From assembly GCA_002633005.1 (NCBI GenBank), contig NMRA01000467.1, positions 26,775-90,774 on the forward strand: a stretch of 64,000 nucleotides of DNA, written 5' to 3'. Below, piece after piece: positions 30,552-56,458 of this stretch. The stretch's first letter is position 1, and each line of letters opens with the position of its first letter. The notes under the pieces are model-generated. The model saw nothing but the letters and a program-made list of their open reading frames with translations. It was not told the origin of the DNA and searched no databases. This DNA is from Phoronis australis. Lineage: Eukaryota; Animalia; Phoronida. A program made the translations under genes and the position numbers.

Positions 30552-30608
30552 ATGCCGGACCTTGCGAAACTAGGAAAAAATCTCTTGAAGTGTGTCGCTA
30601 CTGGGGAG
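30552..30608 (+). CDS. PRXL2B: PRXL2B/FAM213B (SelU-family selenoprotein) coding exon 1
   Basis: 57 bp MPDLAKLGKNLLKCVATGE|gtaaat resembles the vertebrate N-terminus DLARVG..LK..VTGE; phase 0. Confidence 0.88.
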
Positions 30609-30732
30609 GTAAATTGTTCAACTAACTGTGGCGCTGTTAACGTTATTCTCGCCTCGACAGTCATAGATAGCCTTGGGCTTGGACCTAAAGCTGTATATTA
30701 AACAACATGTATCTATATAGTCGTCCCAATTG

Positions 30733-33700
30733 GGTGTAGCGGTCCCATTTGAAACCACCATAACTTCCTTAATTTTAACCTAGAATCATGGTTTTAGCAT
30801 CCACGTGTTCACAAGACGTATAGAAATTTTCTGTAGTGTTACGTTTACTATATCTTGTCTACTTTTTTAATTAATTTACTTCAAAGTTAAAGGCTTTTTG
30901 CCGACTTGATCGCCAGTTAGCCGATAAGTGACGTCAACGGGATGTCTGACACCTACCGGCGATTGTGTCTATCCATTTACAAGGTAAGGAAAGTTCGTTG
31001 GTTCCCTGCCTGCCACAAGCATACAGGGGCGGTAGCACATCCCCACAAAAAGTTACTCATTTCAAAATACAGCAAATAAAATCAAATGAACCATATATAT
31101 GGGAACATGGGGTTATAATTAACACATACCATGCCTCTGGATACAACAATTTAGTCAGGAAAACTTGAACAAATTGATTAAAATCTGTAGCGGTTTGCTC
31201 GAGTTTTTCTTACCAGATGCCATTTTGAGGAAGTTACGTGAAATCATGCTGGTTGTTGAAGAAAAAGGCTAAGGGACACAAATCTTACAAATTTCACCCG
31301 ATACCTTCTCCTGCTTGCAAGTGTCATGCGCTGGCATCACGCGCTTCGCTCAGTCTCGCGCTAGCCTTTCCCTAACTCACGTGACTCCGAGTTGATATAC
31401 TTTGTGGTTATCACGCGCGGTGAAAAAGTTAACGGCAACTAAAAAAGTGGAGTTGCAATTCTTCGCCAAAGTCAACTTAATTCTCACAGCTATTAAGCTT
31501 CATCGAAGATATAGATGAGGTCAATTCCATTTGTGATGGATGTACAATCACAGAACATTTTGATCAATTGTGAAAAAAATGTTCGTCCTTGGAAAATAAT
31601 TAATACATCACTTGATAGGTCTCACTGATAGCTTTCAAAGCATGTATCAACTTTTCCCCTATCTTTTAATGTGACTGAGAAAATTGCCTTTAATGGGGTA
31701 TGATGGACGTACGCAGGGAATTCGATTTTTTTTAAATTTAACGTTAATTTTCTGTGAGTTGCATTAAGTTACAATTTTTTGTTTTATATGATGATATAGT
31801 TGAATGTTTGTAAAGTATGCAACACTAATTTTTTTGATGATATCTTTCAAGAAATTTTTGTCAGACATCTCTATATAAGTTGAGTTAGTGTGACGGACGT
31901 ATGTGATGTACGTACCGTCTGAATTTTTAGTATTGAATTGTTTGTTGTGACCAAGATATCAACTTAAAGGAGCATGCCACCCAAAAAACAACCTAATTTG
32001 TATCAATTCAGATCGAGTAGTTCTACTCCACAACGACACGTACGGTTGCGTTACCTGACACCTGACGGCAGACGGAGGTGTTGAAATTATCTAATGACGT
32101 CATCGGTTTCACACGCAGTCTGCTCAGCAGTTCACAACACTGGTTACTGGTGTCAGCTTATCCCTTGAAGTCATCATTTAACACCAATAAATCATCAAAC
32201 TTCGATGTAAAACCCTTAAAATACACCGAGTTCTTATAAAAACATGTTGTTTTATTTCGCTCTTACGGATTTATTGGTATTTGGGCACATCATAGCCTAC
32301 AAAGTTCGGCAGGCCAATCGGGTCTGTAGCAGGAGTTTGGGGTCTGTTTGGAGATAATTTCGAAGTATTTTCCGTGAGATACAGACATGAGAACCTAGAT
32401 CTGTGTTGTTTTAGACTTCCGATTTTTTGAGTTCTAAACACAAAACACTTGTGAGCCTGGCCAGTGGCTAGGAGCCCGATCAGGCCCGTCGCGGCCGGCC
32501 GGATGGACTCGTTATCCCCGCCAGTGGCTCGGAAACAGACATCACGAACTTAAACCAGCAAAATTTCAGTGGAAACTAAACTTCCAGCCAAGAAAATACT
32601 ATATAAGTGAGCCAAAGTAATGTGCACCTGATTATGTTGGTGAATTAGCCACGAAACTGCAAATCTACTTACTCGTTGGGGATCGCGAATTCTTTCCGCT
32701 TTGGCCACAGCACCGTCAGGGCAGAAATTGTACATTAACAATCATTATTTGAGTAATGTTAATGTAAATAAAGATTCCCCTAAAACCTGGCCGTGGGATG
32801 GAGATCGAGTTGTTTCACAACAGTTTCTGCCAGCAAACACGAAATTAGCATGAGCTCACATGGCCTAGGTGTCCCGTCAATTAGTTTTATTGCACCTAAA
32901 GCCGGGTAATGCAGTGTTTTATTCATTGTTGGCTTTTCAAATCCTTTGCACTCACGAACACTCCAAAGGCATTACAAATTGCATCTAATGAGACAGACTT
33001 CGTTTCAGTTTTATTGGTTAGGGTGAGAATAATACATTTTGAAACAGAACGCTCAGTAATAAACGCCAACATGGCAACTCGCAATCCCGACTTAAGACGA
33101 GCTAAAGCTCTTCAGTCCCAAATTCGCAGGTTGGATCGTTAAGTTTTACAGGCTATCAATTCGAACAGGAATACAGTGATGAAGAAATACTAGAGAGGCT
33201 CCGTGAACAAGCTCAGACAACGGAACGTATGGAGTTATTTGGTAAGCCGGCATTCGTCAGGCGCTGGGACGTCTGCAGGCCACAGACACGGAGATGTTTC
33301 ATGACCTCATACTTGCTATTTACAGCGTACATTTCTTTCTTAACTACCATGAGCCACTTCCTAAGCATTTCGGACTCTCGAGGAAGTAAAAAAAAACGAT
33401 ATACCCGCTTTCCTCGCAGCTGCTTAGTTCGGACGAGCGGGAACGATGCACGGCAATATAGCGGTATTCACTTTGCATATGAACCACTGACGTCACTAGC
33501 ATGGTTTCTCACCTTCCTCACAGGTTAACGCGACACCTCTTGGCAAGGTAAGGTCGACGTATGTGAGGCGATGTGGATATAGACCGATTAAGACGGCAAA
33601 AAAGACTAATTAAATCAGGTGGCATTCTCCTTTAAAATGATTCAAGCTTTTGCAGTATTTAAGCTATATTTGTCTTTTGTTACTAATTCAATGTTTTTTT

Positions 33701-36700
33701 ACTTAAAATGTACCGATTGACCTTTCATACAAAATCATCACAGGTAGGCCTATGCTAGGAATATACTCTAGGATTTTAACTTTTCAATACTTTAAAATAA
33801 AGGTATAAGACAACCACCTAAAATCTTCGCCTCCCTTTGAAGATGGTAAGCCATTTTGGTGGAAATCATTTTGTATTTGACAACCACTAGTTACCTGTTT
33901 TTATGTGTTAAATAGAATACTAAATTCAAAACCAATAAGTAAATGTGACTGTCAAAATATAAAATCTGAAATAAAATTTTAAAACATTACTAACCACTGT
34001 CATAAAAACACATTTTTTTAAAATTAGAACTCGCCCTAAGCTAGCATAAAATTATTCTGTGGACCATGCTGTTGATGGTTCTGATGAATGACATGTAAGT
34101 AATAATCATGGTTTTTTTAAAAAGTATTAGTAACAGGACTTCAGTATCTTCTTAAAACAAAGTGTGTACCATGATTTAGTAGACAACATTTACTTTTGGC
34201 ATTCATATTCAAATCACCTGTGCTGTCTGTGGAAGCAAGACATTTTTTAATTACCGGGTAATTGCATTTAGGATTATGATTTAGGAATATGTAGAACTAA
34301 CTTATCAGGTGTTGGTTTCTATTTAGTGATTAGCGTGATTAAGTTTTCATCCAGCTCTTTATCTCATGCCTTCTTTCAAGTTTAAGGAGAGGCTGCTTTA
34401 AATAATGTCACATCACAGTACGCACAAGTACAATTATGACTTTCTTGATCCACGATGGCATTTTTTCGAGTTTCAAAGAACATTTGGGCAGGTATTTATT
34501 CTTCTCCCAGTTGCATCTGTTCTTTCGGTGGTCTCGAACAATTTCCTCTATCGTTTCTAAACACCGATTTAATCTCCTGGAAGCTCAGCAGAAAAAAAAT
34601 TAGTCTAATTCTTAAAAAAATTAAGGGATCCAAAATACGCTAGATGTGACAATGTAATCATTTGCTTTGAATCATTTCATGCAAGCCACGCAATGACCCA
34701 ATACACTGAAAAACACAAAAGGGTGAATACAATCAGTGGGGCTGTGACAAAAATGACCAATAAAATAGGTGAAAGGTTCCTACTGCTTAAAAATACCCAG
34801 TATACAATGAAGGCTTTTTCAACATGCAACACAGCATAGCAGGTCAGAGTAGAAATAAGAATCTGATGTTGAATCCAGTGCAGTAGCAACTTGAAATGAA
34901 TTCTTTTAGGTCTCTAGTTATTTATACTCTATAGCACCTTAGGAAATCTTTTGTATGAAGAATTTTGCATCTTGGATTTCCCAAAAGCTAAGCATTTCTT
35001 TACAAACACGGGGTAACAACAGATAAACAATAAATTCATTAAATTAGCATTTTGTTTTGTTTACATTTTATAATGTGGTCCAACTGTCTGATTTTAATGA
35101 GTTGTATAACTTTTCTGCAAATACTTTTGAAATTGAAAAATCCAATGCATTTAGTTTAAATCTGTAGCAACTTATTCACATAATTTTAAAGCTGCCTTTG
35201 TAATATTGCATTGTTTTAAATTTCTTAGGTTTATGATACATTTTAACTTCTGCAAGTTTAGAAAGTAAAAATATGTCCTAAGTTTATTTTTATTTGCTGA
35301 AAAATTGTTATTTCATGGGTGTGACGGACATACTTGATGGACGTACAAATTTACTGTACGTCTTTCATGCAATGTCTGACTTAACGAATTATCCCTGGGA
35401 TCTAAAATTTTGGTCAATAGTATTGAGTAACAAGTTAAAAGAGAATAAATTTAATTTTGATTGAAAACTTTTAATGTAACTAAATTTTTTAACACTTTTT
35501 GGGATGGACATACGGCACCATGATATCTAGGAGCTGACCTTTGACCCCAAGAGGTCGATGATGTGCAAAATCCCGGCCACTGGCGGACATTATGGACCAT
35601 GGTAGACAATAACCATCGTCATGCTGGCGCAGCAGAGAAGATGGTCATTGCGGGCATGTACATGCAATAAACAAATATGGCAAGATATGACAGTTTGGTC
35701 AGCAAAAAAGCAATGGTGCTTTTTGCACTGCCTATTGCTGCAGCAACGGTTAAATGAAAATTCACAACTTGCATTTTTTTTTGCTTCCCCACTGATTAAC
35801 ATAGATGGAGTTCATGATTGAAACAAAGGATGTTTTGCGCGAAACTGTCACCAGTCAGCCATGCAGTGATGGGCTGGGTGAAACTGTTCCCTGTATTTGA
35901 TCGCTTATGTAGAAAATTATTGTAGTTGCATGATTTTGTGAACTACTGATTAATTTATTCTATGCACACATGATGCTTCTATTAGAAGTAGTTAAACTAC
36001 TTTCTTTCATTTCTTTCTGCAGTCTTAAGACATTCATATCTAAAAGATAATTCAACAAAGTGTGACATAGACATACCGGTATATGTCAGAGATGCATGCA
36101 TCGCTCTTTGTGTAATTTTGACTGCAGTTCGAGGTGCACATTTGTTTTCTATAAAATAGGAGAACTAGTAAAACTAAAATGACAAGCGTCGGTACTAAAA
36201 TATATTAAAGTATCCCCACGTATCGAGCGATGCGCTCTTTCTCAAGGGTGTGCTACAGACTACTGAATACATGTCACAGGATAGATCTAAAATAAAATGG
36301 CACAGGGGGCCACATAGTGGCATACAATAAACGTGTGTTCATAGTGTTCACGTTTATTGTATGTCCTTTAAAATTGGTGGTCAAATCACTTCAAGGTAAG
36401 TAATTGGGAAAAGTACCCACTAAACACCAATTCAATACATTAAATTAAGTGCTGAATTTTTTATGTTAGGCCTTTATGGAAACATCTTCAAACTTTGCTG
36501 AAAAATCTGTAAATCTGGTGTCCAATTCCGATAATACACTGTGTGATAGCCATTATCATCAGTATGAACTACTTTAAAACTGGCATGGTCCTTGCATACT
36601 CATTTTTGAAGGTTTCAAGGAATAAATATCTAAAGGGAAAAACGTGACAGCTTTATCTGACTCTGGAAAAATTTTTGCTACCACTACAAACGATGGCCTG

Positions 36701-36965
36701 TTTCTTTACCCTGTAACTGGATACACACAATTGCTGGTAGGTGTCAGGTATCCCAATGTCGTCACTGAACAGTTAAATGACTGGTGATATAATGTCGGCA
36801 AAAAAACTAAGTTCAAAGTCAATTAATTAAAAAATTGAGTGAAGGCATGGCAAAACTAACACCACAGAACACTTTCTATATGTCTTGTGAACATGTGGAT
36901 GCTAAAACCATGATTCTAGGTTAAAAATTAAAGAAGTTATGGTGGTTTAAAGTGACACCGTTACT
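30733..36965. mobile_element. ~6.2-kb element bounded by long (~250 bp) terminal inverted repeats, with nested inserts
   Basis: 30733-30990 is the reverse complement of ~36700-36965 (e.g. AAACCACCATAACTT..TTAACCTAGAATCATGGTTTTAGCATCCAC); no intact ORF. Confidence 0.75.
31968..33631. mobile_element. Kolobok-type non-autonomous DNA transposon, copy 1
   Basis: TTAA|AGGAGCATGCCACC ... GGTGGCATTCTCCT|TTAA: TIR plus TTAA TSD. Confidence 0.8.
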
Positions 36966-37017
36966 TCAGACTCGTGCAAGTCCTTGTACAGCTAGGTGAC
37001 TGACTAGGGCCTGGATA

Positions 37018-37122
37018 GATCTGCAGACCTTTAGCCTTGCTAGACATGGGCTATTGCATAGCACTGTATGATCTGCAGACCTTTAGCCTTGCTAGACATG
37101 GGCTATTGCATAGCACTGTATG
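37018..37122. repeat. 52-bp direct tandem duplication
   Basis: GATCTGCAGACCTTTAGCCTTGCTAGACATGGGCTATTGCATAGCACTGTAT, two copies. Confidence 0.9.
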
Positions 37123-37444
37123 ATGGTGTTTTGTCACATGCTGCAGACTTTACTTTCAGCCATGATATTCAACCAGTTGGATGGCCATTTCATTCCACAC
37201 GTGGCCACTTTCTCTCTGCTGTACTTTCACTGCTCACTGCATTGGTAGTCAGACACCATGAAGCATAGGCTACTTCCAGATTTAATTTTGGTATTCTAGG
37301 TGTCAATACTATAGCAACTGTGATGGTAGTCCTTACAGTCTATGTCAGAACAAGAGTATCTACTATACCACGATATCAGCCTCGAATAGCCAATACAACC
37401 GTTCAAGAACCCATTCAGTTATTTAACGGCGTTAAATAATATTT

Positions 37445-37520
37445 TGGCGGGAAACTGAGGCCGGCTTCAAACCCGGTCCGCAAGAGTTTCGGTCCGTCGA
37501 CTTTACCACTTCACCACTCA
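37445..37520 (-). mobile_element. tRNA-derived repeat head (SINE-like), not a functional tRNA
   Basis: A-box-like TGGTGAAGTGG and B-box-like GGTTTGAAGCC on the - strand; a similar relic lies at ~14450-14517; no full cloverleaf. Confidence 0.45.
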
Positions 37521-40500
37521 GCGGCTGACGTCATCGAACGTGAATAGAATACTTACTCTGGAGTTCCGAATAATATTGTAGAGACAGCAATAATAGTATA
37601 GACTGGAAAATTTCAAGATTTTTAAAAATGCTAGAGACTCTAATAATAGGATAGGCCCAACATCTTTGCAACTAGAAAAGTTGAATAATAGTATAGAATG
37701 GAATAATGGTATAGGCGGCAAATTTGTGGAAATTTAAACATAGTATAGACTGGAATAATGATATTGATTACAAATTTAGGTAAAGTCTAATAATGATATT
37801 GAAGGGAATAATAATAATGATGCTAAACAGCAAATTCTAGGGAATATTGGTATAGATGGGAAATATGTGGAAAATTAAAAATAGTATAGACTGGAATAAT
37901 GGTTACAAATTTGTGTAAAATCTAGTAACGGAAGATCGAAATGATAGGAAGTGCAAAATCAAATAATAATATAGATGGGAATAATTATAGTGCAAAGAAG
38001 CAAATTCTGTCTGACTTACCACCGCTTTAAGTAATTGTTTCAAAGAAAAACTTGTAAACTGAACATTAGCATAGTTAAATTATTGCAGTGGTGTATCCAC
38101 ACATGCCATAACATAGTACAGTGAAGTGGAAAAACAGTGTCATTGCTAAAACAAAGACCATTCATTTATTCAATAACTTCAAATGGAAGTCTATATAGAC
38201 GTGTTTCAAACAGTACGCGGAATCATTTTACTCAAAAAAGAATGTGACATTCGTATTAGAGATGCCAAAGTTGACTTAGTACAAAACCTATAACAATGAG
38301 GTAAAGATTTCAGCAGCAATGTCCAGTCTTCCATGAAGCCGACAGTCTGAATAAGGACAATAAAGAGTCTTGGTAAAACAAGTCGCATTTTTATTATACA
38401 TTTTCCTGACAGTCGAGCCTTTGTTTTCTCTCAATCTCTTGTCTTGCACAATGTTCTTACTCAATACCCTCATAATGTTACTCAGAATTCGACGTCAAAA
38501 AGTCGGTACATCCAAAATTTTACACGGCCAAAAATTGAGATTTCTTGCAGAATTGCCCAACATTCGAGTCCACGACCGCGACTATGTCCACCATCTTGAG
38601 TATCTAATTAGGTATAAACAAACCGATTCACATGCGTTTTTCCATTTATTTGGACAGGAGAGCAAGTAGAAATCAATTTCAATAGGTACCGACTAGATTG
38701 TCGAACATTAGCAACTATGTTATTTTCAAGATTGTCACAAGTGCATTCTTCCTGTTCATAAAACAATCTATTCTCAAGTTTGGAGCGAATTGTAAAAATG
38801 CTGGCGATGGCAATGTTGTCGGCAACTTGTTGATTGAAAGGATCGGCACCGTTCATTAATTACACGGGTATTTACGCTTTGTGGACTGGTCGCGTTATCA
38901 CCGCGGTCCGTATCTATAGTTGGATTATTTGTCGTACCAGCATCTGAATCAATGTCTGTCTCTGGAACATCTCTCGGTTTGTAAAATAATCCTCGAATTC
39001 TTTAGGCCTTTGTGCTGCAGAGGACATGATTAAGTACTATGCAGAATGCGCATGTCAATAATGACGGAAACAGCAGATAACACTGGCTGTGGAAAATCTC
39101 GAAATTACTCCTCCCAGAAACACAAACTTTGGGGACAGACACAGTGAAGAGTTGTAACGGCTTGCCCATTTTTCACAGGGTGCAATCATAAATATTGGAT
39201 CACCCAAAGAAACTCGTCGAAAGCGTTTTTATTCATATGTATGGTTAGCTGCCGGTAACACCGATCTGTGTCACGGGGTGCGCGGAATATTGAAAAATGC
39301 ACTTTTTGAGCATTGAATTTCTCATTTCTGAAATTACTGATAGCCTATTTCTTTGAGCTACTGCCAACCAGACGTTAATATTGAGAAAGTGGTCATCATT
39401 TCAAGCTTTTTTAAATTTTGCCAACCCTTTCTTGATTTTGACCGATCCTGTCGAACCTGTCAAAAATAACATTCTGGCCGTCCCACAGAAGACCTCTGCG
39501 TAAACCCTTGCTTGGGAGTCCGATTATTTTACGCTTTGAAACATGCAGTTGTATATTTTAGCAAATAAACTCTTTCAATGTGTATGACATGTGACTTCCG
39601 TGTGTAACACGGAGTCGTATATAACTCTTCTAAATTACAAACTCTGAACTGAGTGTCTCGTGGTCTAGAGGTTTAGAGCGAATTCGATCGTCTTATGACC
39701 AAAGTACGATACCCGCTATCAACAGCAAAGTTTTTGTGTAACAAATTTGTATTGAATGAAACAAAAATTGTGAACTTGCTGAATCAAATAACCGTGGAGA
39801 GTGGAAAAAGGTTTGTAAATTAATAAACGTAGAGACCCGAATAAGCTTCATATAGATCGGAAAACGAGTTTGAAAAAAATAATCGTATAGATACGGCTAT
39901 TCGGAAGTCGAGAGTAAATGAGCACGTGCAATAATCTCATGTCCAACAAACAATATTGTACTGACATTTATATGCTATGAAATATGAGACCCATAATTTT
40001 AAGACATCTTTAATTCTGTAAAATTCATCTGCCGTTTTCTCTCACTTTTAAACCATTGATCTCCGGTTTGTATGCGATTAACATGTCATTGGGATCCTTC
40101 AACTTCGACACATTATACTTAATAATCATTGGTAACCTAAGCAGATGATATTTTCATGGTGGAAGCTTCTAAAGCATGAATAGATGTAGCAAGCAAGACC
40201 AGTGGTTTAAGAATTATTTTACAAATTTACTTTTCTATTTTGTTTCAATTTTTATTTGATTTTAAGTAAAATCATCATTTCAACAAAAAAACCTCTGTGT
40301 TTGTTAAAAGGTCACGAACTCCAACCCAGGTTTCTGACATAGAAAGTAGTTACAAAAGCCGAGGCGAGTCGAGGAAGGTATATCGATTCATTGCAATGTT
40401 TATCTTCAATATGTTGCATTAATAAATAATTTCACGTTCTCAGTCATTATCCCACTTATCTAAGGTGTCCTTTACTTTACAATAGTTGACACGTATCAGC

Positions 40501-43199
40501 TGACATGGAACGAGTTGTTTCAGTGCAAGTACGTGTGTAAACAGAACTGACACAAAGGAAATTGACACCATGGTGACAGCTTTTGCCACCTGTTGGTGAA
40601 GTAGAGCAATTTGTGCTTGATCATCTTGCTCCGTGTCAATTATATGTCTAAACGCGAATTTAGGGTAAGGCGGAAAGAATCATCCCTACTGCACTTATGC
40701 AATGACCTACATACGGGTTGTCTGTCTCTGCAACTCCCGCTATTTGAAAACCTGCGCATGTACGTTCCACTCTCCAGCCTACAACTTCTGTCTTGCTACA
40801 GTTAGTGAATTGTGTATGTCAAGGGCTGCTTGATACTGAGCAATTTGCTCTGTGTCAGTTGCACTGGACCAAACGTTGATGTCTAAACAGGATTTAGAGC
40901 CGTCATAGATTTTGGAGAATTATCACCCTTGGGCAATAATTCTCCAAAATTCACTCGGGCTCTAGATTATGGAGGGATAACGACTCCGCCATGTAATAAT
41001 CTATATAATTATTTGGTGTGAGGGCTGCTGATGAATTGCCAGTGGCTATAAAAATGCCAGTGCCTTGTTGCAGAAGAATCGTAAGACACTTTGTCACTGC
41101 TAGAGAGCCTACTGAGTAATAATCATGAACAAGGTTATTCATTAGTTGATTTGTGTGATCTGATATGATGTCTTTGGTTGTACCAGTTGAGGGTAAGTAG
41201 GGCCTACATGTTGGGACAACACAGGATGGTAATATGATGAGTTACAAATAAGCTGAGACCCAATTTTATGGCGGTAAGTGGTCTAAATCAAAAGTTCACT
41301 TCTTGAATGGAACGTGGGTTTATATTTTGTTCCGAGTCATAGACCTAATTCATGCCGACAGGAGGCGCGTTCCAAAACGAGGCTCGCTATGATAGCTTTG
41401 TTGGCTTATCGGCATACTGGTTGTTTCCTGCTTTGCTCAACGGCTAGAAAAAATACGGACTCTCAACTGTCTGTTTTACAATCCCTAAAGACGTTGAGAT
41501 TTGAAAGCGTTGGGTCGTTGCCATACGCCGTGACGAAGAAAAATATCAGTGTCCATGTAAAATTTATAAATGTTAAGTTTCAAAAAGTTAGATCATATTT
41601 TGTCGTATCTTGGTTGTGGAGCATCATAGCAACGACCTGAGAATCTTCGGCCAGCCAGGCTGTGTTTTCATGACTACAGGTTGAAACATAATGCATTTTT
41701 GTTTCCAAAAAGGACAGGGCCCCAATCCCTCGATTTTGGGGCCAAATATCGGCCCTATTCCCCTCTCAAAGATATTGAAAAATCCCCGAAATACCCTCCA
41801 GGAGGCCAAAAAATTTGCCTAGCGATTGAAGTTCTCTCCGAAATTCATATCACATGTAACCACACATACAAGTGACAATTTGACAGCACAAAATGCTACT
41901 TCAAGTTGAGACAGAGCCAGTGAGAGCTTGCAACAGGGCGTTGGTGCTACTGATATAATCAGAAGGTAGATTTTCCCCTCACTCAATCCTCAGCGAAAAA
42001 TTCCCCTCTTAGGAGACACAGGCACCTTTCCCCTCAGATGAACAAGGCCCCTGAAAAAACATGATAACTATGCTTTGTGCAGTTAACTGAAACTGAGATC
42101 TAAAAAGAGGTCATACTTTGGACGAACGAATTAGGTGATTTAATTTTAAAATTCAACTTGGTCCAGATTGATATTTGAGACCTAACACATAAAATAGATG
42201 TAATAATTATTAAAACCAAGAAATCAGAATTGATGGTCAAATAATTATCAATGTGTGCAAGCTGGGAGTAACTGTTCGTAGGTGGAAGGGAGTGAATGAG
42301 AACCTGGATATAATGTGAAAGTGATTTCTGGGGCTCTGCTTCTTTTTATTTTTCTTTTAATTTAAAAAATGGTCAAGTAAATTTTTACTTTTAATTACAA
42401 GCCTGGTTTTTTATTTTAATAAAAATATATTTAATAACAGATATTCTTTCAGATGAATGACTAATCAACTGTTAGTCCCGGTAGTCTCTACCTCACCAGG
42501 ACCTAGGCTATGCTTGATGTTAATATTCTTGATCAACAAATTAAACCAGATGTGACTAATTGCACATGACAGCAAAATGCCATGAACCACCCCTTTCGAA
42601 TGTATCTTCAACTCGTTAACAATACAAGCAGATGACATGGTTCATGTAGAAAGCATATTTATTAACAGTTTACAAAAAGAAATGTAACCCTGCATTCAGC
42701 ATTATACCTAATCCGTAACATGACGATCGCCGCAGTTTGGTCTTATTTACTTTTCATGTTTCGAACATCGTTTTCCGAAACAAAAACTCATGCCCTTTGG
42801 TCGGACACCTCTTTGGTGCAATGACTTGTTCTCCAATGTATTTTGCTACATCTCTGTGGTTAATTATCAACACATTTTTAAGGTTTAATATCCAGGTTGG
42901 ACTGGAAAGACCGGCCATTTAACTCACACAATGTCAACTTCTGCTTTGTTTATCGCAGTGAGCCTCGCTTTGCATTTTAATGTCCGCCGCGTGAATTAGG
43001 TCTAATGCATGGCATTAAATGTACTGGCTGGCCAATCAAGTGCTTAGAGATGTTTTTGGCTGCAATAAAAAGGAAAATTATCAATTAAATTATGATTTTT
43101 AAGTTAAGCGTTTTAAGAAAACCGTAGGCTTTTGTAAAAGCTGTGATATTAGTTTATTGGGCAGAATAGATGTAAAAACTTTTACCTTATTTAAGATTA

Positions 43200-44620
43200 T
43201 TTATGTCATCAATAATTTGGGTATGGATACTGTTCTTAGAGAAGAGATCAATTCTCTGGAAAAATAAGACTCTTAGGGTGAGGAGAGTAAATACCAGTGC
43301 AAATTGTGGCTTTGACGGTACCATATAGTTGACTATAACTCATTGTTGGTTAGCTGTATTCAGCATTATGTACCATATAGTTGACTATAACTAATTGTTG
43401 GTTAGCTGTATTCAGCATTATGTACCATATAGTTGACTATAACTCATTGTTAGTTAGCTGTATTCAGCATTATGTACCATATAGTTGACTATAACTCATT
43501 GTTGGTTAGCTGTATTCAGCATTGTGTACCATATAGTTGACTATAGCTCATTGTTAGTTAGCTGTATTCAGCATTATGTACCATATAGTTGACTATAACT
43601 CAATGTTGGTTAGCTGTATTCAGCATTGTGTACCATATACTTGACTATAACTCATTGTTGGTTAGCTGTATTCAGCATTATGTAGACGAAGAGAACAAAT
43701 ACTGGAAAGCCTTAGTTTCCAAATTAGCTTTTTAGGAGGTATGGGTGTGCATTACTTTTTAAATCGAATTTTTCGGCCAAGTTGTTGCCTTTGAATGATA
43801 CCGCCCACTTGTATTGTGACTTGTTGAATGCATGGGTAAATTTTAAAATTGTCTTACACAGCGACTTTGATATTATTAGCCATGTAGTATGGAACAATAG
43901 AAATATTTTGAATGATTGCAAATCTGTGTTTTTCCATGGGTCCTACAAAGGTGGTGTAGTTTATGTAAAATATGTATCAGATAAACAATTTTTTTGTTGG
44001 GAAGTTATCAAAGATGCAAATTACGGAGGTGGTTATATTGCTATGCTTTGATGAAGGCATTTAAATTAAGTTACTTAATAGAACGAACTCTTCTAAGACA
44101 AATTCAATGGACAACTTTCATTACAGCCAGATTTGTGCATAATCAACTAAAAATTATTTTTATATAAAATGATTTCACAACCTGTTGTAGGTCACAGATT
44201 AAGTAATATTTATTGAAAGCAACAAATTGGAAAGATTTATGCATTGCCATTCAGACTTGTACTCCTTCCAAAGTTAAAACTTTTAAATATTATTATGTGC
44301 AAAAAGTTGAGATGATAGTTGTTTGTCTTGTAATGCTATTGAAACTTTTGATCATTTGTTTTGTGTTTGTTCACTTGTACAGGTGCTGTGGTCCAAAGTT
44401 CAAGCTTTGTTAAGTAGTGTAACTGAACAAAGCATAGATTTATTAAAGTCTAACTTTTCAAACAACTGTATTTTGGACCTAATTTGGAAGAGCTTAATAA
44501 CTATACAAACTATGCCAGTACTTTATATTTCAGTCATCTTTGCAAGCCTACTATATTCCTTGTATTATTATATCAAAATTTGACAAAAGCTGATTAGCAG
44601 TTACAAAAAGACCTTGAATT
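43200..44620 (+). mobile_element. Decayed L1/Tx1-like LINE 3' fragment
   Basis: Broken frames give VVWNNRNIL and CLSCNAIETFDHLFCVCSLVQVLW (zf-RVT-like). Confidence 0.65.
43318..43683. repeat. 52-bp minisatellite, 7 copies
   Basis: Unit GTACCATATAGTTGACTATAACTCATTGTTGGTTAGCTGTATTCAGCATTAT, head-to-tail. Confidence 0.95.
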
Positions 44621-44940
44621 TCACCTTTTGGGAGGCCTTCTGTAAGTACTTGCATGTATATTTACTTGCACATCTATAATTTGGAAACTAAAAGTAACTT
44701 GTTCATTAAGAAGGCGTGTGTGTGTGAATGTTATACCTTTTATATTGCCAGATAGTTATCATTTGCTGTTGCTTTCTTTCTTTTGGGAAATAATAAAAAA
44801 AACATGTTTATACTTATATTTTCATCTATTATTCTTTGTTTTGTAAATTCTCTTTAACAAGCATGGCTGTAAAGCTATCGTAAAAGGTTATCTGTCAGTG
44901 AGACATCACAGACCTACGTATGATTTTCAATCTGTTTCAG

Positions 44941-45145
44941 TCAGTTGCCTTGGAAACCCTTTGGAAAGACAAAGCCTGTGTGATCACATTCCTGCGTCGA
45001 TTTGGATGACCCTTTTGTCGTCTTGCTGCTAAGGAACTTAGTACTCTGAGACCTCAGCTTGATGCTGCAAACGTACGATTTGTCGGCGTTGGCTTGGAGG
45101 AAGTAGGAGTGGAAGAATTTGTGGAGAAGAAATTTTTTGATGGAG
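44941..45145 (+). CDS. PRXL2B: PRXL2B coding exon 2 with in-frame TGA (selenocysteine) at 45007-45009
   Basis: 205 bp, ttcag|...|gt; SVALETLWKDKACVITFLRRFG-U-PFCRLAAKELSTLRPQLDAANVRFVGVGLEEVGVEEFVEKKFFDG; the TGA aligns with the first Cys of the family's RRFGCxxC motif. Confidence 0.93.
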
Positions 45146-45292
45146 GTTTGTGTAATATGTAACCATGTGTTAATTTGTAGTGAGTGCTAATCTGATAACT
45201 TTTTCTCCTATCCTACCCCTACCCTCACAGCAACCTATCAAATACGCAACACTTCAGCTATGGTGAGCGCCACGCATCATGGCATGCTTTAA

Positions 45293-46639
45293 AAGGGGAC
45301 TGTAGTCAAAATAATGTTGCAGTTAATCGGTTCTAACATACAAATAAAACTCACATTTGCCTGACTTGCGTGCCAAACAAAAGCCAATTCGTATTCATGG
45401 TCAAAACACTGAATTCTGAAAGCCATCGCTGATTGGCTGATGTGTCAGTGACGTGAACGGCGGGGTATCGGCTGCTTTGCACATTCATTGCTTATGTCAT
45501 ATTTGAAGAGTTTACATCGTAATTTATTATTGTATCAATCGTCCTTATTTTTTNNNNNNNNNNNNNNNNNNNNNNNNNNNNNNNNNNNNNNNNNNNNNNN
45601 NNNNNNNNNNNNNNNNNNNNNNNNNNNNNNNNNNNNNNNNNNNNNNNNNNNNNNNNNNNNNNNNNNNNNNNNNNNNNNNNNNNNNNNNNNNNNNNNNNNN
45701 NNNNNNNNNNNNNNNNNNNNNNNNNNNNNNNNNNNNNNNNNNNNNNNNNNNNNNNNNNNNNNNNNNNNNNNNNNNNNNNNNNNNNNNNNNNNNNNNNNNN
45801 NNNNNNNNNNNNNNNNNNNNNNNNNNNNNNNNNNNNNNNNNNNNNNNNNNNNNNNNNNNNNNNNNNNNNNNNNNNNNNNNNNNNNNNNNNNNNNNNNNNN
45901 NNNNNNNNNNNNNNNNNNNNNNNNNNNNNNNNNNNNNNNNNNNNNNNNNNNNNNNNNNNNNNNNNNNNNNNNNNNNNNNNNNNNNNNNNNNNNNNNNNNN
46001 NNNNNNNNNNNNNNNNNNNNNNNNNNNNNNNNNNNNNNNNNNNNNNNNNNNNNNNNNNNNNNNNNNNNNNNNNNNNNNNNNNNNNNNNNNNNNNNNNNNN
46101 NNNNNNNNNNNNNNNNNNNNNNNNNNNNNNNNNNNNNNNNNNNNNNNNNNNNNNNNNNNNNNNNNNNNNNNNNNNNNNNNNNNNNNNNNNNNNNNNNNNN
46201 NNNNNNNNNNNNNNNNNNNNNNNNNNNNNNNNNNNNNNNNNNNNNNNNNCTGGCTGACTGGATGGCTAGAGTCCACATTGCCCTCGGCACAGTCACTGAC
46301 ACCAGTTACACCGGCAAATTTTCGTCTGACGATGACGATGACTAGGTATCACTTTGTGTTGCCTCGGCTCAAACAGGTATCCCTTGTGACCCGAAATTTC
46401 ACACTAAAATTTCTTATTCCGACAATACAAAAAACGCTACTTGATTGCACGCTAACACAGGACAGTGACTTTGCCCCCGCCAAATACGTCACGAGACTAA
46501 GCAGCGCTCCAAGCCGGTAATTTTTTGAGCTTCGTTAGAGAACATAAGTTTAATTTTTGGTATTGAATTATTTGTGAAATTAATCAACAATTCATAGAAA
46601 ACTATCCAGAATTTATTCAGAATAAAATACAGTTCCCTT
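45293..46639. mobile_element. Kolobok-type element spanning an assembly gap
   Basis: TTAA|AAGGGGACTGTA ... TACAGTTCCCTT|TTAA. Confidence 0.65.
45554..46249. other. Assembly gap (N run)
   Basis: Run of n inside PRXL2B intron 2; the protein alignment is continuous across it, so no coding exon appears to be hidden. Confidence 1.
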
Positions 46640-46827
46640 TTAAGTCATCACAGGTTTGAAAGCTCATGTCTTGTTTATTTCATTCATCGCCACAAATAAA
46701 GGGTTTCATCTTTAAACGACATTCTTGAAAAACTTGTGGCAAAAGTTGATAAGTTGTTAATTTTGCTTCTCACTTTCAAGCATACGTGGCTGCATAATTT
46801 GATTCACCACTGACCTGCTTTTTTCAG

Positions 46828-46879
46828 AATTGTACATAGACGAAAAGAAAACATGCTATCAACAATTAGGTTATAAAAG
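46828..46879 (+). CDS. PRXL2B: PRXL2B coding exon 3
   Basis: 52 bp; (E)LYIDEKKTCYQQLGYK(R)|gtaagt matches the ELYLDE.K..Y..LGFKR pattern. Confidence 0.93.
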
Positions 46880-47320
46880 GTAAGTTTTCCTCTTGAATAG
46901 CATTTTTTGCCTGAGAATCACGTGGGGTATGTAAGGTTTGCGATTAGGCTTCTATCGTAGTTATAGTTTCCTGGGCAATAGTCACATTGTCCCAGATTTT
47001 GAGAACCAGTTAGATGCCTGTTATTCAGCGGAAGAAACAGGTTCTCTAAACGCTCGACTCCTGTGACTGTCACTTTCTGAGACTATAATCAGAGTGGATT
47101 AAGAGTGAGATGTCTCTCCAAACTCAGTCTGTGTTAAAATATGACCTGTTTAATACAGTAAACTGCAGCTACTCAACAAAATTTGGTTTATTTCATCTGA
47201 TGCTGAAAAAGTGAGGTATTTTAATGTTAACTAAGATTTTTCTGAACAATCAAATGACAATCACAAGGTTCCTTTACTGAACTGTAATTTTTCAATTGTT
47301 CCTCACCTGTTTTACTTCAG

Positions 47321-47384
47321 ATTAGGATTTTTTGGAACAATTGGAGCGATTTTTGGCAAGAAGTCAAGAGAAGCAAATACAAAG
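47321..47384 (+). CDS. PRXL2B: PRXL2B coding exon 4
   Basis: 64 bp; (R)LGFFGTIGAIFGKKSREANTK|gtgagg; phases consistent. Confidence 0.88.
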
Positions 47385-47460
47385 GTGAGGTTCTAGAACG
47401 TTCTGTTTTTTGGCTAATTTTAAAGCAGTGGAAGAACTATTTTAATTGCAAGGTGTTTTA

Positions 47461-47617
47461 TTGATATTTTATGAAGTGTACTAGTTGTTACATATTATAT
47501 TGATATTTTATGAAGTGTACTAGTTGTTACATATTATATTGATATTTTATGAAGTGTACTAGTTGTTACATATTATATTGATATTTTATGAAGTGTACTA
47601 GTTGTTGCATATTATAT
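47461..47617. repeat. 39-bp minisatellite, 4 copies
   Basis: Unit TTGATATTTTATGAAGTGTACTAGTTGTTACATATTATA. Confidence 0.93.
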
Positions 47618-50002
47618 TCAAATTGGGAAAATTTGTTGATGGACTCTTGCTTACTACCCTCATGCTTCCAAAATAATATGAATCCAGGGTCGAGGCTCTG
47701 CAAACAGAACTCTGCAGGCCATAACTGTGAATTCAATGACAGAGCTATGTACTAGAAACCAAGCAAGGCCAGCGATCAGAAACTGCGCCCAAAGCTTCCG
47801 TGTCTCACACCCATGCTATAGTTTGGTTTCTGTGTTGTTTTTTAACCCTGACAGCCTTCCTTATTCATTACTCTAACTTAGTATCACCCCTTGTTAACTG
47901 AAATGTCTTCATTGAATGAAGTGTTTTCATTTAGCCATCAGACATTTTGAAAGGTTAAAAGCTGGTTCAATCCCACATTCCATCAATACTTTTGACAAGT
48001 TAGACCATTTACCACAATTCGTTCCTTATTCAGATGGTTTCTGTACTTGATAAGAAGTGACAGTTGACTATTGCCTGAGATCATGCTCAGCACATGAAAT
48101 GACCAGCTATGACTAGTGATCATTTTATAAATATGTGATTACGTGTCAATTGATCTACTAGGTGTCAAATCTATGCACCTATCGGCCATTTTTGTCAATT
48201 ATTTTCCTTTTTCGAATCAATTTTTGATGGGTGGCATTTTAATGCATGTGAGTATGTCTGTTTCAGTACTTAACGCAATTACTGAGTGGTTGAAACAGCT
48301 AACTCCATTTCAACAAATAAATCCACAGTTTGACAGTGTTTTCATATGTTAGACCCCATGTCACTAACATTGTTATTTTAATCAAATGTTCTGCACTCTT
48401 ACTGTTTTAGTATCTGAATGCAATGCGTATTATTCAAGACAAAATCAGGGGTAATTTTGACAAATTTAGTGCACCCTATTGGCACCACTTAAATTTATCT
48501 GCCAATGACATAAGGTTCTAAAATTATTCGAGCATGACAAGCCAACATGCAGACATAGCTTCAAGCACTATTGAACTTCCAGTTCTATCCAAGCCCATGT
48601 GTCAACTCTGGCTGGAGTAAGGTGGATTTATAACAGTTCCTGCTTTAACAAATAACTAGGCTCGCGCTAGACACTCCGCCAGCTCACCATTGGCGTATTC
48701 TGAGCTGCACTGACGATGGTAGAGCTATGTCCATTCGCCAACTTGGCGAATGCTTTCGCAACTTGACAATAAAAATTTATTTCTGGAAATCCACTGGGCG
48801 TCGACTTACAGTCAGCTCAAATCAAGTCACACCACAAAGGACATTCTTACTTCTATTTGGAGCCCTAAAAACACCAAGCGAATGTCCCATTTTATGTCTG
48901 TCACTCTCTCTAAAATCACTCTTTTACCACAACGAAATGTTCAACTGTGTAGGGGGGGGGGCTCTGTGCTCTTGGTAATGGCGATGTCTTGCTTCATAGC
49001 TAGATCTCATGCAGGTGCTGCTGCCTGTCATCTGCAAGTGACAATTATAGCAAAACGACGAATAGAAGATTATTTTGATGGCAAACGCGACCCAGTCTCT
49101 CAATAACTTTTTACACTGACAACATGGTGTGAGCCAGTCCAACAGTATTGAATTACTGAACTGAGTGGAGCTGACCCAAACGTGTGATATGAACTCAAAG
49201 TTTAAATTTATTATTTTCATATTAAATGAATTTCTCCTAATTCATTACTAACATTACCTATTTTTAGCGCATAATTTGTCGTGTCAAATTTTGTTTAGAC
49301 TTGACACTGACAGGTTTTCTTTTCAAGGAGTAAAAAGCACGGACGACGCCTGGAAGAAGGAGTTTGTTATATATTTTTAAATCAAAATATGTCAGCTCGT
49401 TAAATGTCACTAATATAAAAAGTTATTGAGAGACTAGGACGTGTTTGCATTTTGGCTGCGGCTGAAAGAAAGTAAATGTCATTTTGTTACTTAATGAGTT
49501 CTATGTTCAATACTTTGCACGATTTAGCTTTATTTTGCAAGTCACAAGAAGTTATAATAACGTTTTTGAACCTTAATATCTTGCTCATCAAAATGTGCTC
49601 GTGACTGGCAAAGCCTGTTGTAACCCGGGATTAGGGGGGGAATTCCTGCCAAAAAATTTTTAGCTTTTGCAGGTCTTGATAAAACCCATGATGGCTGACA
49701 TCCCTTCCAACTTGTTATATGACCTTGGAATGTTGATCATTTGTTTTTTTTTTCTCAAGACAAACATTTTTTATACTATGTTCATGAAAAGGACCTGTGC
49801 ATTAGATGAAAAATAAAAAGTTCGGTCTGTGTAGCAGTATTTTTATCCATTGCAGGGGTTGGGAAAAGAGAAAGTATTTGGCTAATAGTTTATGAAAATG
49901 GCTAAAAGTTTTCAGATGCGTTAGCCATTTTGGCTAATACCTTTAAAAGTTTCGTGAGTCTAGAATAATGTGTGATGGTTGCTTCCAACCATTTTATGGC
50001 AG

Positions 50003-50078
50003 GCAAAAGCTGAACAGTTGGGTGGAGACATGAAAGGAGATGGGTTTCAAAATGGCGGGACTCTTATTGTGTCTGCTG
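50003..50078 (+). CDS. PRXL2B: PRXL2B coding exon 5
   Basis: 76 bp; AKAEQLGGDMKGDGFQNGGTLIVSA(G)|gtgagt contains the family GD..Q.GG motif. Confidence 0.93.
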
Positions 50079-50903
50079 GTGAGTATAAGAAAATCTGTTG
50101 TGTGATGCATATCTAATGAAATCTTATACAGCATCAATCTGATTTTGAGTGTTCAACAAATGTTAGGTAGGAATTGTTGAGGTCTTGATTGATAGAGTTC
50201 TGGGGCCCATTATAACAAAAGTTGCCTGCTCATTCTTGGCTAAACCATAGTAACTTTCATGTTGTTTATGAAGGTGATCAGAACAACATTTTGCTCTGAT
50301 AGGAAATACAATCATGTATTTGCAATGATATAGGTACAACCACATGAACGACAAATGAACACATGATCTTTGATAAATACAGAACCCTGTGTTCACAACA
50401 AATATAGCACTACTTGCAGATGTGTTGTTTTGTTTGACACCTAATGTCGGATTGCACAGTTTTTGCCTGTTATAAATATTTGGTAATGAGATTAAAGCAT
50501 TACTGCGATCAAATAGTGTTGTTGTCAGACTTTTAGTTAGCTAATAATTATCTGTAATTGCAGCACCTCCTGCTTAGTTTTGTTCAGGTATGCAACATTT
50601 TTAATCTTGATCATATTTTAGCCATTTCTTAACCTGGATTCTTGTTGTTCAGATATTTATCTGCACTTTCTTGCATCCAAACTGTCAAAGTTCAATGTTT
50701 TCCTGTTTATTTTGAAAACTACAGTAATTGCAATCATATTGGCGATCTGCAGTGACTTGGCAGAGTTGTGTATTCTTACATTGCTTTGCACTTAGAACTC
50801 AGTCTGTATAAAGTGATATTAAGCAAAACATCTTTTGTGCGATCTAAAAATTTAAATTTTTGTCATATTGTTAGTCCTTGCTAAGAGTCAATATGGTTTT
50901 CAG

Positions 50904-51052
50904 GTGGAAAGGAAGTATTGTTGGAGTATGTACAAGAAAACGCTGCTGACCATGTTGAACTCAGCGCAGTCATAAAGGCACTGGGGTTGGTGGAGACTAC
51001 TCCTAAAACTGAACCTGAAGAGGGAGCTACTGGAGTGTGTTCTGATGACTAG
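50904..51052 (+). CDS. PRXL2B: PRXL2B coding exon 6 (to TAG stop)
   Basis: 149 bp; (G)GKEVLLEYVQENAADHVELSAVIKALGLVETTPKTEPEEGATGVCSDD*; total CDS 603 bp = 200 aa plus stop. Confidence 0.92.
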
Positions 51053-52397
51053 TACAGCATGGAGGTACTTAATTTTTACTGACGGAATGTTTAAAAGCAC
51101 TCAGCTTGTTTACTGAACAAGACTTTTTGATTCGATGTTAATTGGCGAATCCAGTACCAGCATGTTTTTTTGCATCATTGTCTATTGCAACACCCCTGAT
51201 GTTACAGAAAACTTCAAGCATACCAGCTTGGCAAAAAAGTGGTCAGTTCTTAGGAAAATGACACACTGGAGAATTTTTTTTCTCAAATTTCTCAATGAAA
51301 ATAACATTTAAGATTTTTTGTCTATGATTAGCATGGTTTGTTCTGTGTGTTTTATAAAAGAATATAACTTGCCTTTATTATGCACCCACATATTTATATG
51401 TGGGTGCATATTGCTGTCATCTCTGTTCGGGTATGCTGCATATGTAGCAGTATCTCCAAAACCCTTGCAATATCTCATTGGAATTTGACTAGTGTATTCC
51501 TGTGTGGCTTATGACAGATAGCGATGAGTTTTGGACCGACCTAGACACTGTTGTGCCCCATAGTGGGAAGTTTAGTTTTTTTACGTTTGTCTCTGTATCT
51601 TCGGAGTTCCACAACATTTTTTAATGAAATTCGGCAAGTAGGCTTTTAATACGGAGGCGATGATGTCATCTCATTTTTGAACTTATTCAACTAATTTTAC
51701 ACCACCTTGTGGACATTTTTGTTATTTTTGCATCTGCCATGCTGCTCAAAGGATCATTGTACAAATTTACTGATGTGTTGCTGATAAGAAGGCAATTACT
51801 GACGTTGACTTTCTGACTGGTCTGACCTCTGTGTCACCCCTTGTGGTGATTTTGTTTCTTGCATATGCGGACGAATCTCCTTGAAGAAGCTTTGTAAAAT
51901 TTGAAAGATTTACAGTATTCCTATGGAGCCATCAACAAATTGTAATTAGAATGGAACTGATCCAGATACCACTGTGCCCCCTAGTGGTAAATTTTTTAAA
52001 TATGTTTTTCTATGTATCTTTGGAATTTGGCAAATAGGTTTCTATAAAGATGATAATGCATTCATATTCTTGGTGAGATATGTTGTTTTCTGCTCCACCT
52101 GGTGGCCAGTTTTGTTATTTTTGTGTCCCAGTTTTTGGTGACCACTTCCCTGTGTGCCATACTGCTTAAAGGATCATTATGAGAATTTACAGGATGTGTT
52201 CAAGTCCTGATGAGAAGACCATGACTGAAGTTCATTTTCGGACGTGTCTGACTTCTTTGTAGAGATTTTGTTTCTTTGTATTTGCAGCCAAATCTCTTTA
52301 ACCCTTTGAAGGAGCTTCGTTAAATTTGAAAGATGTAATCCTATGGAACGTCGACGAATAGTAACAGGTGTCAAACTGATCCAAATACCACTATGCC

Positions 52398-54579
52398 CAG
52401 GGCTCGACGTTATTAAAATCGCCAGGTCGCATTTTGCGACCTAGCCAAAATCCCAGGTCGCATTTTCAAAATCCAGCTCGCATTCGTAAATGCCAGGTCG
52501 CAAAATTTTCCCGCCATTTTTACGCGCCAAAATAGATTTTTTAGATCATCGAGAAATTGCTCTTACTTGCAGCGTTAAATACTCACAAATTTCGGATCTC
52601 AAAATTGACTTCATTCATGCAGGTACGGCCTTACTGTTCTTCACGACCGCCATTGAAAGACTCTAGAGCGCAAGGCAAGTTGCCGACGTGAAAGTTGAAT
52701 CAGTGCTCTCTAACTGACTTGTGCATTCGAGTAGCTAAACTTGCGATGTGAAAAGGGAGAAAATGCCCCTTGAAAAAGTATCCGGGATATTTTTAGATCT
52801 GGCCTGCTACTGGTTGTCATCAAAGTCGTTAACGATTCAAACTAACTCGGGTAATGGCGAGTTTGCTCCGCAATACCTTCCAAGTACGGGAAAAATAGGT
52901 CAGTCACAAAACGACACGCATGTCACTAGTGTTAACTTTCTTTCCGAGGTATAAAACAAAGCCAGGATTTGGTTTTTACATATTGTGAAAAGACGTTTTT
53001 GAAAACTGAAGTTGTGTAAAATGAAAGTGACACACCATATAAGCTGCGTGACAATTTTAAATCACACGCGGTCGTTTGTAGTGCGCTATGATGGGCGCTA
53101 GCTTGAACTGTGGGCGCTTCATTGGAAATTCTCAAAAAATTTAAGGGGGGACTTTTAATAGATCAGTGAGCGCTTATTATGAAACACTTTAAAGGTAGGG
53201 AGTAAGCTTGTGCGTGACCATAGTCGTTAACCTCAGTGTTTGGGTAATAAGATATTAAAACGCTGCAATGGTATTAGAAACGTTATAAATAATACGATTT
53301 TGCGAGGCAAACTCCATCTCGTAGGGGTGACTTCTGGATATCGTTACCACCTACATTGTACCCTTTTTAGCCACCCGGAATGATTTTGTTTTTAATTGCC
53401 CGCCTCAGCCGGAACAAGGTTGTTTCTATAGGAGTCTGAACATTTTACGGCGACGGTGGTTCGGGGAGCGAAAAGTTGCCGGGCTGGGGTGTATAAAGAG
53501 AAGAATGAAAAGTTCGCTAACTTGAACCACAATTTCGCATCTAGTGCCAGTTTAGTTGCAATAACTGGCTACGGGCATAGAATACAGGATTTACAGAACA
53601 TCGACCTTGGGAAACATCGGAGCAGGAAAACGTCAGTTCTCGGGGTTATATCGGTCCCGGTACATCGGGTCTTTTATAACCGCTGGGAATCTGAGTTTAT
53701 TTTCAAATAAACCAGAGCCAAGCCGGTATACTCTTCATTTAGGGCAGTCGCTGTTCTTTGAAGTAGTGCGCGCGCGTGAGTTCACGCACTTGAATCGCTG
53801 GAGTAGGCCTACACTTTACGTTGGCAACAAACGCGTGAAAGACAAATCATATTTCGCGCACGTAGCCCCAGAAACAAGTAAGGGGTTTGAGAATTTCTTG
53901 GCATCTGAAAGTAAAGACGGGGCCGTCGTTTGGCGATTAATAAGGTTGTCATTTTCACTTTGGCTGCCTTAATGCGATAAAAATCAGAAGCACATCTCAG
54001 TCTAAGTCACGATTGTGTGCCGGGACCGCTTGCGCGCTAACGGTGCCGCAGTGCGGTATCAGGGATATTGTCGTGGATATTTGGTACATGTAATAAGGAC
54101 ATCTTATGTGAAAAATAAACATTTTTGTCCACCACAAAGTTTGGTAAGTTAATCGCTTAAGAATTAGTAGAAACACCGTTGTTTTGTGAAGTTTTATCAC
54201 GTGTTAAGCAGTGGCCCGAAACTTTCTTCGGCGAATCCGGGAATTTACAAAAGTGGCCGAAAGTGTTAGCCAATCATACGCGTCGAATATCGATACTGCA
54301 TATCCCATGTTCACGCGACTTGCATACAAGTCATCGGGAGGGCTGTCCCCGTTAGTGTTGTTTTGGACTTGGATTTGGCAGCGACCAAATAACGGTCGGA
54401 TTAACAAGAGCTGCTTTGTATTTGCCAGGTATCTGTTGAGAAGTGTAAAAAATCAGCTCGCATTCGTTGGAAATTCCAGGTCGCATTTTGCGACTTGATA
54501 CGAGCTGACAAAAATCTCAGCTCGCATTTCCAAATTTCAGGTCGCAAATGCGACCTGCAGCTCGTTATGTCGAGCCCTG
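52398..54579. mobile_element. 2.2-kb non-autonomous TIR element with 5-bp TSD (hAT5-like)
   Basis: TIRs CAGGGCTCGAC / GTCGAGCCCTG; ATGCC duplicated (52393-52397 and 54580-54584); subterminal CAGGTCGCATTTT repeats at both ends. Confidence 0.8.
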
Positions 54580-54691
54580 ATGCCCCCTAGGGGCAAAATG
54601 TTTTTTACTTTTGCCTCTGTGTCTTCAGATTTCATGAAATGCGGCAAATTGGAGTCTGTTAAGGGGACAACAATGCTATCCCATTTTCTGA

Positions 54692-54858
54692 CAGATTTGA
54701 TGTTTTCTGCACCACCTGGTGGCCAGATTTAATGTATTCTGCATCACCTGGTGGCCAGATTTGATGTTTTCTGCACCACCTGGTAGCCAGATTTGATGTT
54801 TTCTGCACCACCTGGTGGCCAGATTTGAATGTTTTCTACACCACCAGGTGGCCAGTTT
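54692..54858. repeat. 32-bp tandem repeat x5 carrying a CTCF-like core
   Basis: Unit CAGATTTGATGTTTTCTGCACCACCTGGTGGC. Confidence 0.9.
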
Positions 54859-56139: not shown

Positions 56140-56212
56140 CAGAAGACTATATGATGCCGTTTTGTTAAACTCCAGATGGGAAAACAAGATGGCTGATGGA
56201 CGCAAGTCTCTG
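56140..56212 (+). promoter_or_regulatory. SECIS element (type II) of the PRXL2B selenoprotein mRNA
   Basis: AUGAU core (56151), 11-bp helix II GCCGUUUUGUU/AACAAGAUGGC, unpaired AAA (56167-56169), apical mini-stem, 3' UGAU (56194-56197), helix I AGACU/AGUCU; AATAAA signals at 56269 and 56274. Confidence 0.9.
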
Positions 56213-56458
56213 CTGATGCTTTGTTCGAGTTTTGTTTTTGCCAGATTTGATGTTTTACTACTGCCCATAATAAAATAAATATGTTATACTGAAGACAACT
56301 GCTGTACATGTATCAACTTAATAGCTTTTAACTTGGGTAAACCATAAATCCAAGAGGTTTGCGTATACACGTCCATTAGTTCTTATTTCCGCATGGTGAA
56401 TTATACCGTTTTTGGGGTAAGACACAAAAACAAGCCATTTTGAAGTTCTTTTAAGTAA

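Follow-up and report, generated by a model that had tools for sequence, protein, structure and literature searches.

A transcribed SelU3/PRXL2B-type gene of Phoronis australis with an in-frame UGA very likely read as selenocysteine

We describe a transcribed and spliced gene of Phoronis australis for a thioredoxin-fold protein of the SelU3/PRXL2B type, in which the UGA at codon 42 is very likely a selenocysteine (Sec) codon, so that a UxxC redox site (U42, C45) is predicted. The gene lies in a stretch of 64,000 nucleotides of contig NMRA01000467.1, hereafter the window, to which all positions refer. A sequence-only reading of the window had proposed a Sec-containing PRXL2B, and this proposal is supported by an invariant TGA, an excess of synonymous differences in relatives, TGA in 14 of 18 homologous loci, and a SECIS element downstream.

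Results

Gene structure and RNA support

As judged from exon boundaries and translation, the spliced coding frame consists of six GT-AG exons with 603 nt and 200 residues. Its sole internal stop is the TGA at 45007-45009, codon 42, in the context FLRRFG-TGA-PFC. The features of the gene are as follows.

30552..30608, plus strand: coding exon 1, with ATG and 19 codons; the loose ends at 44939 have its 3' end as their consensus
44941..45145, plus strand: exon 2, which carries RRFG-U-PF-C
45007..45009, plus strand: in-frame TGA, codon 42, putative selenocysteine; aligned with Cys44 of human PRXL2B (9us9) and unchanged in 4 of 4 runs
46828..46879, plus strand: exon 3, from RNA-read joints
47321..47384, plus strand: exon 4, from RNA-read joints
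50003..50078, plus strand: exon 5, from RNA-read joints; weak PF13911 match
50904..51064, plus strand: exon 6, with the TAG stop at 51050-51052, followed by 12 nt and a GT at 51065 as putative donor
51065..56078, plus strand: putative 3' UTR intron (intron 6), 5,014 nt, GT-AG; its 5' part has sense-strand reads in X4 and X5
56079..56290 (3' end approximate), plus strand: putative non-coding exon 7, with the acceptor AG at 56078 and AATAAA at 56269-56274

Introns 1 to 5 measure 14,332, 1,682, 441, 2,618, and 825 nt, and exon 1 extends into its intron as an open reading frame of 49 amino acids. Three RNA-seq runs chosen by species label (X4 to X6) and three runs presumed to be RNA (X1 to X3) were used, of which X2 and X3 come from two other organisms; about 18-19 in 100 of the reads of X4 and of X5 entered the analysis. 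Junction reads in X4 and X5, nearly all of one orientation, connect exons 2 and 3 (137 and 108), 3 and 4 (178 and 155), 4 and 5 (217 and 206), and 5 and 6 (146 and 149). The link between exons 1 and 2 rests on loose-end reads (174 in X4, 326 in X6), which give the last bases of exon 1 as their consensus; the aligned stretches were located outside exon 1 itself. Background in intron 5, at 50286-50873, is at most 2x sense-strand depth in X4 and X5. The gene is expressed and spliced as first drawn through exons 1-6, and the predicted architecture of six GT-AG exons with a 200-codon frame broken by the TGA only was borne out by boundaries, translation, and the four directly read junctions. The extent first proposed for the gene, 30552..51052, holds for the six coding exons and falls short at the 3' side, where a seventh, non-coding exon very likely lies beyond it.

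The in-frame UGA and its conservation

At 45007-45009 no differing letter was listed in any of the four runs with data, namely X4 (∼160x), X6 (∼288x), and the contigs of X2 and X3; differences at exon 2 were listed from 1 read in 100, and the X2 contig has a depth of 3. No RNA-read joint in X4 or X5 bypasses codon 42. The listed differences in X2 and X3 number 14 and affect 13 codons, synonymously in 11 and by replacement in 2 (X3 has 18 differences in total, 4 of them outside the listing and the codon tally). Downstream of the TGA the same comparison gives 8 synonymous codons to 1 replacement codon, an excess that argues for selection at the protein level past the stop and against neutral decay in these relatives. 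Five differences were found in X4 and X6, at a ratio of 4:1. Similarity to homologues extends to residue 180-200, in agreement with the conservation past the TGA that had been noticed earlier. The sequence-only reading had named reads with TGT or TGC, transcripts that skip the TGA, and neutral decay in close relatives as the outcomes that would speak against it; none of the three was encountered.

Among 18 homologous loci from metagenome contigs, the codon-42 site is TGA in 14 and TGC in 2, with no motif in the other 2; the 14 are not independent, since the protein of L004 is identical to that of L005 and there are several Daphnia-like loci. In 173 stored proteins, a set that includes the query and two unrelated neighbours, the redox motif is CxxC in 105, WxxC in 34, and of another form in 4, with no motif in 30. 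At this site protein P0182 has W but locus L001, 97% identical to it, has TGA, and the W in the WxxC records is likely a TGA misread by gene callers. Records from Daphnia and the chiton Liolophura, labelled prostamide/prostaglandin F synthase-like, begin just past the UGA codon, the kind of truncation that had been expected of annotation pipelines. Daphnia-like SelU3 sequences (L002, L004, L006; P0006-P0010) have an ATG directly after the TGA, which is why the records are truncated at the N-terminus and start MFCRL.

A modest hairpin was also seen just after the UGA, in one of four stretches folded (45007-45080, starting 7 nt in; z -2.18, 5/200 shuffles). Its position is where a Sec redefinition element would sit.

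Family assignment

With exon 2 alone, Pfam returned AhpC-TSA (PF00578) at 26.2 bits, with a cut-off of 26, and PF13911 at 24 bits, with a cut-off of 27; the near-full-length homologue matches carry PF13911 (AhpC-TSA_2). NCBIfam gave SelL_rel_redox only, below its cut-off, in 4 of 4 proteins. The best match in the PDB was human PGFS/PRXL2B (9US9, 9USA), with E 5e-16 for exon 2 and 2e-73 for the family profile. Arg40, Arg41, Phe42, and Cys47 of the human protein are kept as R38, R39, F40, and C45, and Cys44 corresponds to U42; human Pro167, next to the active site, is Ala here and is also replaced in several other invertebrate homologues. Identity is 55% over 178 aa to coelacanth PRXL2B and 63% over 151 aa to a chiton protein. 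From its predicted protein, the gene belongs to the SelU/PRXL2 family with the (U/C)xxC motif. The nearest named relatives are prostamide/prostaglandin F synthases, and no protein named PRXL2A occurred among the named homologue matches. A quick tree of 51 selected rows placed the query in one group (SH-aLRT 95) with the chiton protein and an unnamed one; as this tree had no PRXL2A/PRXL2C outgroup, membership in SelU3 rests on the nearest named relatives.

Two further features of the family were noted in passing. A divergent clade (P0081, P0218, P0226, P0242) has an altered redox motif, with Tyr-Ser or similar in place of the second Cys. Five vertebrate-like predicted proteins (P0087, P0111, P0066, P0085, P0102), compared as proteins only, leave the family sequence at the sites of introns 1-3.

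A predicted SECIS element at 56143-56210

The sequence-only reading had not reported a SECIS. A sequence of canonical SECIS shape is present downstream, together with a weaker candidate close to exon 6.

56143..56210, plus strand: predicted type II SECIS, with an AUGAU core at 56151, an 11-bp helix II, AAA, a 3-bp helix III, and UGAU ending at 56197
51079..51131, plus strand: weak SECIS-like candidate, with a CUGAC/UGAU core and a short irregular helix, just inside the putative intron 6

The element at 56143-56210, which also has a basal helix, was the only strict match on both strands of the window and the one clear element among 92 core pairings when the scan was extended to 64000. Its core fits the UGAN/KGAW rule as given in the available text of PMC3753652. 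The fold has a z-score of -2.5, and 0/200 shuffles of 51053-60000 reached its energy, while 25/200 gave some match at a looser cut-off. In the predicted spliced mRNA the UGA and the element are 561 nt apart, which exceeds the minimum distance of 51-111 nt cited in PMC3753652.

With Rfam, the SECIS_1 model aligned all 64 of its positions to 56143-56210 at 23.1 bits (E 0.74), under the gathering score of 35, and over 50900-56000 it found no SECIS at E values up to 10. Rfam likewise found no SECIS in any of the 18 homologous loci, and its blanks are therefore weak evidence here. The strict scan recovered a SECIS in 2 of these 18 loci and so favours specificity over sensitivity; with looser settings, AUGA-type candidates appeared in L002, L004/L005, L006, L010, L016, and L017. 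A covariance model to be built on six elements from homologues was abandoned, as MAFFT had aligned their cores out of register.

Pattern scans had also given weak candidates at 51079, 51770, 52210, and 55010, which were set aside once the core at 56151 had been found. A ∼420-bp repeat seems to account for the last three, as copies of it or as parts (55010 by eye). The first is the candidate at 51079-51131, which is probably not functional as far as its folding indicates (51075-51140, z +0.44, no better than shuffles).

The putative exon 7 and the reads in intron 6

Splice signals and the end of an X1 contig suggest that exon 6 is spliced to exon 7 across 51065-56078, which would bring the SECIS into the mRNA; with reads aligned as far as 53500, we hold this to be quite probable. 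The match of the X1 contig with exons 2-6 fills exactly 161 nt of its bin and breaks off at 51066, two bases beyond the donor; these two extra bases are expected, given that exon 7 too starts with GT. The contig has 172 further unmatched bases and would end at about 56252, 17 nt ahead of AATAAA. No X1 contig was found over 51067-51167. Acceptors with a pyrimidine tract and followed by GT number six in 53500-60000, and only the one at 56078 closely precedes the SECIS; it sits 72 nt ahead of the SECIS core, and AATAAA follows the SECIS.

Reads of X4 and X5 run past the donor, at an implied depth of 19-100x against 146-198x in exon 6 by depth arithmetic, and sense-strand depth reaches 41-55x at 51462-51755 in these runs. 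Part of the depth in intron 6 may come from repeat copies elsewhere, since alignment accepted 85% likeness in a region that consists of a ∼420-bp repeat. The sense reads at 51065-52350 hint at a second 3' end without a canonical SECIS.

Several details of this region stand apart. Jumps back from 51994 to 51576 were seen in 30 and 12 reads, which implies an extra ∼420-bp repeat unit absent from the assembly. At 51379-51410 a perfect 15-bp inverted repeat lies in a short dispersed element at which hundreds of reads have loose ends. Past the TAG (51050-51064, 56079-56087), the frame reads YSME and then, across the putative junction, VY and TGA. The X1 sequence shares the TAG and has one codon missing at 51043. 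The frame after the TAG can be aligned with the tail of homologues, which has two Cys, and exon 7 may formerly have been coding, the second tail Cys having been lost through the earlier stop.

Neighbouring sequence

No tRNA gene was called within the 64-kb window. A 638-codon open frame at 60011-61927 on the minus strand probably represents the final exon of a gene running convergently; two homologues match a quarter of its length at ∼30% identity, with no Pfam listed for either. By eye, broken frames at 4024-5975 resemble a decayed Ty3/Gypsy retrotransposon, with protease-, integrase-, and reverse-transcriptase-like pieces.

Discussion

Alternative explanations

A UGA is ordinarily a stop, and the codon could mark a transcribed pseudogene or a truncated product of 41 residues. 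Set against this are the 8:1 synonymous excess past the codon, the TGA shared by homologous loci, the SECIS, and the abundance of the spliced mRNA, and we consider a true stop very improbable. Equally improbable in our view is a decoding of the UGA as Cys or Trp, whether through an altered code or through some mechanism other than Sec insertion. The W in 34 of 173 stored proteins and the modest hairpin after the UGA could be taken in its favour, but the W is likely a gene-caller artefact, as P0182 and L001 illustrate, the site is that of the catalytic Cys, and a SECIS lies downstream. A gap of 696 N nearby (45554-46249) might have raised the suspicion that the TGA is an assembly error and stands for a true TGT or TGC; with ∼160 and 288 reads and the contigs of two relatives all showing TGA, this explanation is refuted and its probability is negligible.

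A different objection accepts the selenoprotein and concerns its 3' end: the gene could end near exon 6 and use the candidate at 51079-51131 or some other element, leaving the hairpin at 56143-56210 outside the mRNA. The sense reads of X4 and X5 beyond the donor speak for such an end. However, the X1 contig departs exactly at the donor plus GT and X1 contigs are missing just beyond it, the distal element is canonical and stands between a suitable acceptor and AATAAA, and the proximal candidate folds like its shuffles. We judge this arrangement improbable, though less so than the explanations that deny Sec, and favour a selenoprotein mRNA that ends in exon 7.

Proposed mechanism

Splicing of the intron at 51065-56078 would join exon 6 to exon 7 and set the SECIS about 560 nt past the UGA, from where it would recruit the Sec machinery to UGA42. 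SBP2 binds the SECIS core, and eEFSec brings the Sec-tRNA to the UGA. By extension from human PRXL2B, the attack on a peroxide or disulfide would fall to U42, C45 would resolve the U42 intermediate, and a cellular reductant would re-reduce the site. The likeliest substrate would be a lipid endoperoxide such as PGH2, a proposal about evenly balanced against a general role on peroxides or disulfides; the Ala at the Pro167 position may mean that substrate handling differs.

The reads in intron 6 also allow a regulatory scheme with two 3' ends, which we put forward as doubtful. Splicing to exon 7 would supply the SECIS and yield the selenoenzyme, whereas transcripts that keep intron 6 would carry at most a degenerate SECIS and UGA42 would act as a stop. 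Splicing of the 3' UTR would then be an on/off switch, and exon 7 would once have been coding, until an earlier TAG separated it from the frame. In human SELENOS, variants 1 and 2 are described as differing in 3' UTR splicing that decides whether the SECIS is present in the mRNA (PMC3628699); the proteins are unrelated, and the likeness holds only if the intron-6 reads represent a real isoform.

Comparison with known SelU proteins

Sec-form SelU3 in invertebrates was already published in 2012, and the gene described here adds a member (Jiang, Ni and Liu 2012, PMC3473315). As presented there, SelU3 is the most abundant SelU group in invertebrates, with 8 proteins in 7 species, and the 3 Cys forms are all from deuterostomes. 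With the invertebrate Sec forms, for example SelU3_b of Amphimedon, the gene shares its family, a Sec (predicted here) in the first position of the redox motif, and a SECIS (likewise predicted) on the 3' side. It differs in organism, in the spliced RNA reads and relatives that back the UGA, and in the SECIS behind a putative 5-kb 3' UTR intron; the published set, compared here by its description, may hold a close orthologue.

Human PRXL2B, also called FAM213B or SELENOU3 (PMC12938796), shares RRFG and the second Cys, and differs in having Cys44 where U is found here and Pro167 where Ala is found. The protein tail ends here after a single Cys (C197), whereas many homologues have two. In the account of human PGFS, the PGH2 endoperoxide is reduced by free cysteines, and Cys44 and Arg41 come to lie beside it in docking (PMC12938796). 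SELENOU1/PRXL2A belongs to the same SelU family, has Sec in fish and birds, and is a different subfamily; Sec is reported only in SelU1 in the mainly vertebrate sets of PMC3316567 and PMC13134290, and in the latter, a vertebrate-centred survey of 2026, all Sec-encoding SELENOU genes are given as SELENOU1. One planarian SelU is included in PMC3828610. Among titles and abstract openings, mostly from outside the subscription literature, we found no experimental test of Sec-form SelU3.

Implications

Sec-form SelU3 does not figure in the available text of the vertebrate-centred survey PMC13134290, and the Sec forms described in PMC3473315 are genome predictions, to which the present gene adds support at the transcript level. 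Invertebrate annotations need correction, as relatives are recorded as proteins that begin after the UGA. If the SECIS lies past a 5-kb UTR intron, as the splice signals suggest, searches that cover no more than the first kilobases past the stop codon can miss it. A natural Sec-containing PRXL2B would permit a direct comparison of Sec and Cys in the reduction of prostaglandin endoperoxides.
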